From positions 3,846 to 12,194 of IMG/VR virus record IMGVR_UViG_3300013947_000211: a DNA stretch of 8,349 nucleotides, one strand, 5' to 3'. Origin of the DNA: a virus. The notes below the pieces were generated by a model. The model had not been told where the DNA came from, did not search any database, and worked only from the letters and a program-made list of their open reading frames with translations. Of this stretch, positions 202 to 8,349 are shown one piece after another (within the stretch, counting starts at the first letter, position 1; each line of letters begins with the position of its first letter). A program made the position numbers and the translations under genes.

Positions 202-228
202 TTATTTTTCCTTTCTTTTTTTAATAAA

Positions 229-400
229 CACTGTACTAATATTTATTTATATGGCCTCCTAGATAGTTGTTAGCTAGGTTCTATCTCTAATTTGGGTTAA
301 TTCTTCTTACCGCGTAAGAGTGACACGATAACTAAATACCCTTGTATATTTTCCCTTTTCGAGTAATACAACTATAACCTCAATAAATATCAGTACAGTG
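229..400. repeat. 19-nt inverted repeat arms (229..247 and 382..400) enclosing 134 nt
   Basis: cactgtactaatatttatt compared with the reverse complement of aataaatatcagtacagtg gives 18/19 complementary positions. The single mismatch is 238:391. Confidence 0.9.
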
Positions 401-404
401 CACA

Positions 405-429
405 TAAAAAAACAACCATTAAGGTTGTT
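405..429 (-). terminator. Terminator-like hairpin plus U-tract on the minus strand (may instead be an internal helix of the ncRNA)
   Basis: The minus strand reads AACAACC-TTAAT-GGTTGTT followed by TTTTT-A-TGTG. The stem is only 7 bp and of moderate strength. It sits between the two structured halves of the non-coding region. Confidence 0.3.
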
Positions 430-535
430 GGGACCGCAACGGGTCAATGTTAGTACATTATTAGTACCGTATTAAGTAAATCAGACGCATAAGGGTTCAA
501 ACCTTATTTATTAAATGCTCATATAATCAGCGCCC

Positions 536-656
536 GATTTACTCAATACGCTACCAGTAAGGTAGCAGTACATATTTACTAGCACCATAGAGTAAATAGT
601 CAACTCGAGTTCTTATAATCTATAAACTATCTACTCTATGCTACTAATAAAGTAGC
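536..656. repeat. Two copies of a ~30-nt unit (536..566 and 626..656) ending in hairpin gctacY-aRtaa-RGtagc
   Basis: tactcaatacGCTACCagtaaGGTAGCa compared with tactc-tatGCTACTaataaAGTAGCa. The C:G closing pair of copy 1 is replaced by T:A in copy 2, a compensatory double change. Confidence 0.8.
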
Positions 657-775
657 ACGGTGATTTTATTGTCTTATTTATAGACAATGTGCAAGATAAT
701 ACAATTTGAAAGGAGGTATAAAAAAGAACATTTTTTAAACCTGGTTATCTGTTATCGGCTTCTATTTTTCTGAAT

Positions 776-3728: not shown

Positions 3729-3936
3729 TATCTTCTACCTCCTCTATTAAACCATCTTTTTTAAGCATTTTTAAAATTCTATTATTCTTATCATTACAAG
3801 ATATTTCTCTCGAATGAAACCAAATGCGAATGTATGTAGAGCAGTCTTTGCTGCTCCAAAAAATACTACCGCTGTCTGAAGATTCAAAAGGATAATTTTT
3901 TAATATTTTTAAGTCTATATTATCTTTAATCTTCAT
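3715..3936 (-). CDS. Hypothetical protein, shorter paralog of the gene at 3926..4270
   Basis: Shares K-x-NIDL-x-x-L-x-x-Y-x-F at the N-terminus, an internal HSREI, and an acidic L(I/V)E(E/K)V tail with the upstream gene. Confidence 0.8.
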   Translation of the reverse strand: MKIKDNIDLKILKNYPFESSDSGSIFWSSKDCSTYIRIWFHSREISCNDKNNRILKMLKKDGLIEEVEDNENN

Positions 3937-4578: not shown

Positions 4579-4900
4579 TATTTTTGCCCTTGAGTATTGC
4601 AATATTTATTTCAGCAATATCGATTATTGCATCACCAGAATATATTATCTCGTGAGTTGGTTTGTAAAATTCTTTTATTTGATTTATATCTTTTCGATTA
4701 TGTGCTATTGCATCTTTAATTCTTTTTTTTAATGTGTCATTCTCTTCTTTTAATTCCCAATATTGAATTTCAAAATCTTCTAAATGGCATAGCATCTTAA
4801 ATTTTGCTTTTGCATTTTCATCCTTATATTGACCTTTTGAAAGACATCTTGCTTTCATTTCTTCCTTTAATCTTGTTTCTTCTAATGTTAATGGGTTCAT
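4571..4900 (-). CDS. Hypothetical coiled-coil protein
   Basis: ATG after AAAGGAG. TAATG overlap with the upstream gene. Confidence 0.8.
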   Translation of the reverse strand: MNPLTLEETRLKEEMKARCLSKGQYKDENAKAKFKMLCHLEDFEIQYWELKEENDTLKKRIKDAIAHNRKDINQIKEFYKPTHEIIYSGDAIIDIAEINIAILKGKNNE

Positions 4901-7923: not shown

Positions 7924-8349
7924 TTAATTCTCCTTTGGTAATGTTATTTTTACATAACCTTTTTTGCCTTTCTTTATTTTTTCTTTATCTACTAAATATT
8001 CTGCTTGTTTCAACTCATATAATTTTATTAATTCAAAATTTTCTTTTTTAAATAAATCTTCATCGACTTCCTTCTCAATGACAGTTTCATCAGGTTTATC
8101 CTCAATTAAAGTAATCTTTGTTCCATTAGGTGTTTCCCATTTTTTTATCTTTTTATCTTGCATTACACTTTTTAATTTTCCTTTAATCATATCTACTTGT
8201 TTTTCAGTCTCTTTCATTCTTTTTAGTTGGTCCTCTAGCAATATAACTCTATTAGATAACTCAGTTAAATCAGTTGGTAATAATTCTTCTTCTGTTATAA
8301 AAGGATTTTCTTTTACTTTTGCTAAATCAATTTTAAATTGTTCTACCGA
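7924..8349 (-). CDS. C-terminal 141 aa of a coiled-coil phage protein (partial; Gp157/Mu Gam-like arrangement is possible but unverified)
   Basis: The track start at 8241 is an internal TTG. Hand translation shows the frame stays open to the window edge (...SVEQFKIDLAKVKENPFITEEELLPTDLTELSNRVILLEDQ...). A coiled coil is followed by KKIKKWETPNGTKITL and DKEKIKKGKKGYVKITL, reminiscent of Gp157/Gam family layout. Confidence 0.8.
   Translation of the reverse strand, partial: SVEQFKIDLAKVKENPFITEEELLPTDLTELSNRVILLEDQLKRMKETEKQVDMIKGKLKSVMQDKKIKKWETPNGTKITLIEDKPDETVIEKEVDEDLFKKENFELIKLYELKQAEYLVDKEKIKKGKKGYVKITLPKEN

Follow-up and report, generated by a model that had tools for sequence, protein, structure and literature searches.

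Positions 202–775 of the viral DNA analyzed here contain no gene, and the question that this locus raises is what, if anything, is encoded there. The DNA is a stretch of 8,349 nucleotides (nt), hereafter the window, corresponding to positions 3,846–12,194 of the IMG/VR record IMGVR_UViG_3300013947_000211. In the original prediction, made from the letters of the sequence, the region was a candidate large noncoding RNA resembling ROOL or GOLLD, about 570 nt long, with three long-range helices and an adjacent transfer RNA (tRNA). Our analysis leads to a different answer. Every long helix closes a modular RNA element, hereafter the cassette, of which it is the stem P1, and this cassette is a widespread, covarying, and strand-specific RNA element of the phages of gut Bacilli. 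The inserts held by the P1 clamp are freely exchangeable, and some phages have a complete tRNA as the insert. All genes of the window are on the minus strand, and between the gene of a 135-amino-acid protein (p135) and the tRNA the only convincing gene is an open reading frame (ORF) for a hydrophobic peptide of 26 amino acids (aa). The phage is temperate, and related prophages are found within metagenome-assembled genomes of uncultured gut Bacilli. Related loci are designated below by L numbers.

A structured RNA on the strand of the genes

The absence of coding capacity in 202–775 was verified: no ORF of 60 aa or more was found there. The idea that an alternative genetic code hides a gene was also rejected, as reading TGA or TAG as sense opens no frame, and the longest open frame across 203–981 is still 67 codons. 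The three helices were recovered at 229–247/382–400, 468–482/536–550, and 586–600/626–640, each with the single A.C mismatch on the plus strand that had been reported for it (238:391, 474:544, and 595:631). A repeat search gave the helices longer arms (217–247/382–412, 454–488/530–564, and 575–600/626–651), and when they were extended to roughly these arms the mismatches on the plus strand numbered 11 A.C versus 1 G.T.

The fold signal of the region is far beyond chance. The minus-strand RNA of 202–775 reached −174.1 kcal/mol, compared with −114.8 ± 6.4 kcal/mol for dinucleotide shuffles (z = −9.27), and the plus strand reached −130.4 kcal/mol (z = −4.38); in every relative examined, the sense-strand fold was the more stable one. 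That the region gives a structured RNA from the minus strand is therefore borne out by the folding asymmetry, the excess of G.U pairs, the covariation presented below, the co-orientation with the genes, and a predicted promoter together with an internal terminator. The stretch free of ORFs stood as first described, but its limits did not, since the structured noncoding part is probably longer and extends from about 926 to 203.

In contrast, the likeness to ROOL or GOLLD found no support. At gathering scores, Rfam 15 recognized only the tRNA in the window, and a search of 1–1100 with sensitive filters (E ≤ 10) added nothing to the tRNA except sub-threshold matches to microRNA-precursor models, which recognize long hairpins. 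The related loci, examined as sets of eight, then six, and then four more, gave tRNAs only, so that the Rfam check suggested with the original prediction, once run on the window and on these loci, returned no ROOL, GOLLD, or other family apart from tRNA. Over the window and 17 related loci, with thresholds set at gathering scores and at E ≤ 10 or E ≤ 1, these searches yielded tRNAs and chance matches to hairpins. When the window and the consensus arms of the cassette were compared by BLAST with GenBank phages, only tRNA fragments were found.

The long helices are closing stems of a repeated cassette

Nor does the region form one RNA of ~570 nt with a single architecture, because the long helices are three copies of a repeated module of ~90–170 nt. 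Across phages, this module measures ~90–190 nt and consists, in order, of hairpin a, a P1 of 15–21 base pairs (bp) in which position 7 is a conserved G.U, a structured insert that varies from unit to unit and measures 40–160 nt, and hairpin b.

The arms of the helix 229–247/382–400 recur in distant relatives around different interiors. An exact-match scan with the pattern of these arms (TGTACTGAT ... ATTRGTACAGT, C-type) retrieved 72 IMG/VR stretches with 61 distinct elements, whose interiors are 75–160 nt long and mostly unrelated. Both flanking hairpins lie outside the search pattern; the 5′ arm directly adjoins hairpin a (CACUACCU...AGGUAGUG) in 45 of 53 C-type elements, and the 3′ arm directly adjoins hairpin b in 40 of them. 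A second kind of arm (H-type, ATAGAGTAGAT ... ATCTATTCTAT), close to that of the first unit of the window, was found in 105 further IMG/VR stretches, and the H-type units likewise have the layout of hairpin a, P1, and hairpin b. There are 154 distinct units with common arms and unrelated inserts.

A covariance model (R1) was built from 24 elements carrying the C-type pattern, with the window left out. On the minus strand of the window, R1 matched 658–566 with 33.5 bits (E = 2.8e-5) and 568–451 with 37.4 bits (E = 2.9e-4 in a search of 549 kb; 20.9 bits over 451–560 with the filters off). It did not detect the helix at 400–229, which matches the C-type arm pattern and of which a 168-nt version is common to the window and L005. 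From the R1 matches and the C-type arms, the window holds unit 1 (658–566), unit 2 (568–451), and unit 3 (400–229). The P1 of unit 1 has 14 Watson-Crick and 2 G.U pairs, while that of unit 2 has 21 bp including 3 G.U.

Covariation and strand specificity

Covariation among homologs had been proposed as a check of the helices and, when it was carried out, the helices of the module covaried strongly. P1 comprised 427 Watson-Crick pairs, 45 G.U, and 3 A.C in a set of 31 units with arms that the C-type pattern had not fixed, and a model-guided alignment of 96 sites contained 111 G.U versus 7 A.C. The G.U at position 7 of P1 was kept in 66 of 80 profiles; two of the three mismatches noted at the outset, 474:544 in unit 2 and 238:391 in unit 3, are this wobble. 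As much as 93.7% of the aligned cells were paired, versus 80.1% in shuffles, with double-sided changes in 20 of the 21 pairs and 299 compensatory cells where 56 were expected. The covariation score was 0.42, compared with 0.18 for shuffles and no more than 0.08 with slid partners. For P1 alone, 95% of the cells paired and double changes were present in 11 of 12 pairs. Hairpin b covaries as well (AGUGCU/AGCACU, AGUAUC/GAUACU, and AGUACC/GGUACU), and hairpin a is richly covarying in H-type units. The loci L001, L003, and L004, with an identical p135, are ~100% identical and were of no use in this analysis. An outer helix between the 5′ strands of hairpins a and b was considered and dropped, as no correlated changes were seen on inspection.

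The orientation of the elements agrees with a sense-strand RNA. Sense matches outscored antisense matches at a given site by ~20 bits, and the neighboring ORF was on the same strand as the element in 53 of 61 cases upstream and in 48 of 61 downstream.

Exchangeable inserts and tRNA cargo

Phages with p135 proteins 89%–96% identical are a mosaic of blocks in this region, with one to four units of differing types between common flanks. Because the number of units varies in this way among near-identical phages, the region has no fixed global fold. Distant relatives of the locus lack units altogether; L014–L016 have the p135 promoter and the terminator, and no unit. Elsewhere, a unit may stand alone or in a tandem pair or triplet, and one genome may have units at several sites; their neighbors include terminase subunits, the portal, the minor capsid protein, HNH/NUMOD endonucleases, and glycosyltransferases. 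For example, a 190-nt cassette is located in L067 (7246–7439) between a terminator and the ribosome-binding site of the next gene, while L031 has 33 unrelated nt (8183–8215) in its place; both flanking genes and the upstream terminator are common to the two loci, and the junction shows no target-site duplication. The protein families found most often beside the units are p135-like and TerS-like. By Pfam, the best matches of the immediate neighbors are ordinary phage proteins; among these neighbors, no reverse transcriptase, nuclease, recombinase, or Nop protein was found to co-occur consistently with the units.

The inserts are themselves structured, and their hairpins stay paired despite double substitutions (L028, L051, and L078). 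In L164 (~1660–1840), L116, and L172, ARAGORN identified a complete tRNA-Trp(CCA), with the CCA end encoded, between H-type P1 arms. A tRNA-like RNA in L108 (8931–9034) scored 44.5 bits with the Rfam tRNA model, and there P1 extends the acceptor stem. In all four loci, hairpins a and b lie outside the clamped RNA. As in leader-trailer arrangements, complementary P1 flanks enclose a structured RNA, and the complete tRNA-Trp genes among the inserts indicate that the clamp carries cargo RNAs. A T-arm was found in sense orientation in 7 of the 154 distinct units and in antisense orientation in none. The tRNA adjacent to the region in the window, which had been part of the original prediction, proved to be real (Table 1), and its proximity is meaningful because relatives of the window units carry tRNAs inside.

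Organization of the leader and its predicted transcription signals

The features of the window are compiled in Table 1. Beyond the window, a longer and near-identical contig (L001) continues with three small genes, a Terminase_3 large subunit, an SPP1-type portal, a minor capsid protein, an HNH endonuclease, and a scaffold protein. Upstream of the region are genes for SSB, a NinB-like protein, and many small proteins. Judging by this gene content, the region is the junction of the early or replication genes with the packaging and structural genes.

Table 1. Features of the noncoding region and its borders in the window; MFE, minimum free energy
Feature	Position	Strand	Basis
p135 gene, 135 aa, putative sigma-region-4-like late regulator	982–1389	−	ORF; directly upstream of the noncoding region
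Three direct repeats (ATGTCAC / ATGTCCT / ATGTCCT) with 10-nt spacing	951–977	−	Read from the sequence; putative p135 sites at the −35 position
Extended −10-like element TGGTATACAAT	933–943	−	Likeness to relatives; predicted start near 926
First leader domain, helix 865–840/702–677 around ~137 nt with local hairpins	677–865	−	Inverted repeat and MFE fold
Cassette unit 1 (H-like): hairpin a, P1 586–600/626–640, small apical insert, hairpin-b region	566–658	−	R1 match
Cassette unit 2: hairpin a 566–550, P1 468–482/536–550, ~55-nt insert, hairpin b 469–453	451–568	−	R1 match
Small hairpin GACCCGUUGCGGUC, rich in G+C, after unit 2 and before the terminator	431–446	−	Predicted fold; kept in L006/L008
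Intrinsic terminator AACAACCUUAAUGGUUGUU followed by U7	404–429	−	Terminator scan
Cassette unit 3: C-type arms UGUACUGAU...AUUAGUACA (229–247/382–400), 134-nt multi-hairpin insert, no hairpins a and b	229–400	−	Arm pattern
26-aa hydrophobic ORF (MIIIGLVLLITIASIAIVLNILNDYK) with AAAGGA ribosome-binding site, directly after unit 3	121–201	−	Translation, conservation
tRNA, anticodon CAG, class-I shape, co-oriented with the cassettes, within the leader	47–121	−	ARAGORN; Rfam tRNA 47.9 bits

The p135 family has 157 members, all of them unnamed. The protein had no Pfam match and no significant match in a sequence-profile search of the PDB. Its AlphaFold2 model (mean predicted local distance difference test score 81.8) gave sigma factors and sigma region 4 as the top Foldseek matches, which were not significant (E ≥ 0.5), and faint hints from hidden Markov models lean toward sigma factors too; p135 is thus a putative late transcription regulator similar to sigma region 4. 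In about 25 members of the family, changes in the C-terminal helix go together with changes in the repeats downstream of the gene, the helix RHC[CR]RLY being paired with ATGTCC, RQCHNLY with ATTGCAC, and RQCHRLY with ATGGCAC. A −10 element resembling TGnTATAAT always follows the repeats in the family (in relatives, TGCTATAAT, TGATATAAT, and TGGTATAAT). From these patterns we infer that the direct repeats are binding sites of p135 and that an activator-dependent late promoter spans ~977–933. A generic sigma-70 scan did not call this predicted promoter because it has no −35 hexamer. From such a promoter, with its start near 926, the region would be read in the direction of the genes. The covariation of helix and repeat also amounts to a DNA-recognition code, open to testing, for a family of late-gene regulators that has no annotation so far. 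In addition, the TATAAA strings in hairpin loops were considered as promoters and rejected, being poor −10 matches in stems that covary.

The terminator, the only intrinsic one on the minus strand of the 8.3-kb window, divides units 2 and 3. Every member of the p135 family has a terminator 60–500 nt past the promoter, and of the 43 loci where a p135-like gene is present, 39 have a same-strand unit no more than 1.5 kb downstream. A sense terminator was found within 120 nt downstream of 22 of 69 arrays (background, 0.21 per kb per strand), and the type of terminator present in the window also follows cassette arrays in many other phages. In the cassette-free relatives L011 (~4620–4740), L014–L016, and L024, a second long-range helix, with strands ~100 nt apart, follows the leader terminator, and this helix also covaries (GAGGCAUAAAGG/CCUUUAUGCCU, GAGAUUAUAAAGG/CCUUUAUAAUCU, and GAGGUAUAAAGG/CCUUUAUACCU).

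The helix of the first leader domain is a 26-nt inverted repeat, 88% complementary, and is present in the MFE fold of the whole leader. It is contained in a 68-aa ORF (982–776) that overlaps the stop codon of p135, has no family match, and has its reading frame broken between relatives that are 88%–94% identical. Because of these frameshifts and of the helix that it contains, the ORF was taken as noncoding and is probably part of the leader.

The 26-aa ORF is kept in L005–L008 and L019, and L012 has a DNA match of 73% identity; distant relatives have a 40- to 45-aa membrane protein in its place. The hydrophobic peptide could be holin-like, an exclusion protein, or similar to type I toxins. The identity of the tRNA is uncertain: it has the CAG anticodon of leucine and yet a short, class-I variable region, and bacterial tRNA-Leu has a long variable arm as a rule. 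The CCA end is encoded, there is an A.A mismatch at each end of the acceptor stem, and the tRNA is also present in L006 and L008. On the plus strand, positions 489–505 within the insert of unit 2 (AAGGGTTCAAACCTT) form a T-arm-like hairpin resembling the T arm of this neighboring tRNA; the transcribed strand reads AAGGUUUGAACCCUU.

Proposed function and alternative explanations

The explanation that we favor, with a probability of about one half, is that the cassettes are co-transcribed small-RNA units in the 5′ leader of the late operon and that P1 serves as a stem for processing and insulation. According to this model, the leader of the minus-strand operon for packaging and structural genes would hold a tandem array of three cassettes. 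Transcription would begin near 926 at the p135-dependent promoter, and most transcripts would stop at 429–404, giving a terminated leader RNA of ~0.5 kb with units 1 and 2, whereas transcripts that pass the terminator would also include unit 3, the small ORF, the tRNA, and the late genes. The P1 stem would work like the leader-trailer helix of a ribosomal RNA (rRNA) precursor, so that each cargo could fold by itself. A double-strand-specific ribonuclease (RNase), most likely the host RNase III, would cut P1, and the cargo would come free as a small, stable RNA with hairpin ends; what is left of hairpins a and b would be caps that protect the 3′ end of the upstream RNA and the 5′ end of the downstream RNA.

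Several points weigh against this model. Cutting of P1 by RNase III is proposed purely by analogy, and a tRNA cargo would not need the clamp, given that RNase P and 3′ nucleases suffice to mature it. Only 4–7 of the 154 units have tRNA or tRNA-like inserts, unit 3 lacks both flanking hairpins, and about two thirds of the arrays are without a nearby terminator. The covariation analysis drew on an alignment that had been fitted to the model and in which some rows are antisense; likewise, the exact-match search patterns account in part for the conservation of the arms in C- and H-type units. Finally, P1 and hairpins a and b are near-invariant across unrelated phages, beyond the generic needs of RNase III, which hints at a sequence-specific partner of the clamp; none was found. 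An extended version of the model, possible but doubtful, is that the clamp is a shufflable socket, read by a specific factor of host or phage, through which small effector RNAs are acquired, swapped, expressed, and excised. If so, the cargo would be tRNAs in some cases and, in others, perhaps RNAs for host takeover or anti-defense; the socket would then be an RNA-level analog of integron cassettes or microRNA clusters and a large reservoir of noncoding RNAs in phages.

It is also conceivable, though in our estimation unlikely, that the units are mere punctuation of the messenger RNA (mRNA), that is, stem-loops for stability or processing comparable to the RNase III sites of T7 and SP82 or to REP, ERIC, and Correia-like repeats, and that the inserts have no function. 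Such a role would suit elements that are intergenic, sense-oriented, optional, and present several times per genome beside very diverse genes, with a P1 that forms a long, near-perfect duplex next to flanking hairpins. However, the inserts of 40–160 nt are never a simple loop and are structured themselves; compensatory changes preserve their pairing and some are complete tRNAs, and a stability element needs neither. We hold it to be less probable still that the units are cis-acting RNAs for processive antitermination, similar to HK022 put, EAR, or conAn2, which would carry RNA polymerase through the terminators of the leader and of the late operon. The loci L014–L016 keep the promoter and the terminator without any unit, so that units are not needed for this switch, and many units are located after terminators or between structural genes. 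Tandem copies and tRNA inserts would not be expected of an antitermination RNA. What recommends the idea is the order of a small regulator gene, a structured RNA of 0.3–0.8 kb, a terminator, and a long operon, as well as the strongly conserved base of the units, which could mean contact with the host RNA polymerase. The conAn2 RNA is likewise 260–600 nt long and poorly conserved, and that of pLS20 has a 238-bp center within 20-bp inverted repeats; those repeats are, however, dispensable for antitermination (PMC8191782).

We give little credence to the inverted repeats acting as DNA, whether as miniature transposable elements, attC-like sites, or sites of the pac, cos, or origin type, even though conserved arms around a variable interior, presence or absence at a locus, changes in copy number, several copies per genome, and the position of the window array just upstream of the packaging genes are all features that a DNA element could have. 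The mismatches on the transcribed strand are nearly all G.U (45 to 3 and 111 to 7); as a folded single DNA strand would tolerate G.T too, this only weakens that particular case. In addition, the orientation follows that of the genes, the tRNA cargo is sense-oriented, and both flanking hairpins covary. The upstream part of the region is conserved even when the type of terminase changes, and no transposase, integrase, or recombinase was found in the window or 10 kb downstream. With orientation bias, nonrandom mismatches, and an L067/L031 junction free of target duplication, the cassette was rejected as a miniature inverted-repeat transposable element. The most improbable of the explanations is the one from which the question started, a single large, ornate RNA of the ROOL or GOLLD kind, possibly assembling into multimeric cages. 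The distance of ~0.5 kb from the predicted start to the terminator, the prophage context, the neighboring tRNA, and the very stable fold would all be in keeping with it. Yet no large-RNA family of Rfam matched even at E ≤ 10, phages with 89%–96% identity in the flanking protein differ by gains, losses, and exchanges of units, and each unit folds by itself and also occurs singly at unrelated sites.

Comparison with known systems

No description of the cassette was found in Rfam 15, in GenBank phages, or in the literature searched, although it may be listed without a name in catalogs such as that of viral RNAs, with 10,006 candidates (PMC10690425). Should the model be right, the phages of gut Bacilli would have a standard socket of a stem plus two hairpins with which to carry and release many small RNAs, and these would form a widespread phage RNA family that is new to the catalogs; just two exact arm patterns yielded more than 150 distinct inserts. 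It would also account for the grouping of tRNAs and odd structured RNAs in a leader ahead of packaging genes, and would provide a list of cargo RNAs for functional tests, as well as a handle, the clamp, for finding more of them and their reader.

Like the cassette region, ROOL and GOLLD are noncoding RNAs of Bacillota prophages, several hundred nt long and often beside tRNAs (PMC5737381, PMC12286853). The region of the window, in contrast, is modular, with a variable copy number and units of only 90–190 nt. ROOL was rejected because its covariance model gave no match and because no architecture of ~0.5–0.6 kb is conserved among homologous loci, which have one to four units, or none; GOLLD, an RNA of ~0.8 kb with a conserved 3′ half, had no match at E ≤ 10, compared with a modular region that measures ~0.5 kb from start to terminator. 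The Y RNA YrlA resembles the cassette in its long end-to-end stem and variable module, with a tRNA mimic (D and T arms) in some copies. Most cassette inserts are not tRNA-like, however, and no Ro/Rsr gene was seen nearby; the best YrlA score, in L108 only, was 17.4 bits (E = 0.77) compared with a gathering score of 69, and there was no match in the window. In conAn, a bipartite antitermination system of conjugative elements in Gram-positive bacteria, the gene of a small protein precedes a structured noncoding RNA of 260–600 nt that heads a long, terminator-containing operon, and in pLS20 inverted repeats flank the center of the RNA (PMC8191782). The order of small protein gene and structured RNA is the same here, but the phage units are optional at the locus, are repeated, occur elsewhere in the genome too, and can hold tRNAs.

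Tandem phage stem-loops with a variable center and a terminator after them also recall TIGR arrays, which are processed unit by unit into 36-nt guides and have 8–12-nt spacers, variable stems, conserved boxes C and D, and an adjacent gene for the Nop-domain protein Tas (PMC12045711). The 5′ arm of the cassette even contains a box-C-like CUGAUGA. In the cassette, by contrast, it is the stem that is conserved, CUGAUGA forms part of the paired P1, the 3′ arm (AUCAUUAGUACA) lacks a CUGA box D, and the units measure 90–190 nt. No Nop-domain protein was detected by Pfam in 26 ORFs of the window and 10 ORFs downstream in L001 (18 kb examined). A TIGR-Tas array was thus ruled out by unit size, by motifs, and by the lack of such a protein. 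The same CUGAUGA is part of the hammerhead core, CUGAUGA...GAAA with three stems. Neither a hammerhead nor a box C/D reading was retained, since no model matched, the string is paired, and partner motifs are absent; no Rfam family of self-cleaving ribozymes matched in the window or in 17 module-bearing loci, and the inserts have no conserved GAAA.

Closest to the cassette are the stems cut by RNase III. In T7 and the Bacillus phage SP82, each RNase III site is a simple hairpin that has an internal loop and carries no cargo, and after cutting the hairpin is left at the end of the mRNA. They share with the cassettes the repetition of related, sense-oriented stem-loops in leaders and between the cistrons of phage operons, whereas the cassettes enclose long, variable, structured inserts, including tRNAs. 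In rRNA precursors, the flanks of a stable RNA pair into a long duplex, the leader-trailer helix, in which RNase III cuts. There, as in the cassette, a duplex closes off a co-transcribed structured RNA from a long transcript. The phage clamp differs in being of ~15–21 bp, with a near-identical sequence across unrelated phages and its own flanking hairpins, and in holding cargos of 40–160 nt, dispersed as well as in tandem, inside phage mRNAs. By analogy, the cassette would work most like these leader-trailer and RNase III stems, from which it is set apart as a sequence-conserved, cargo-bearing element that occurs both dispersed and in tandem.

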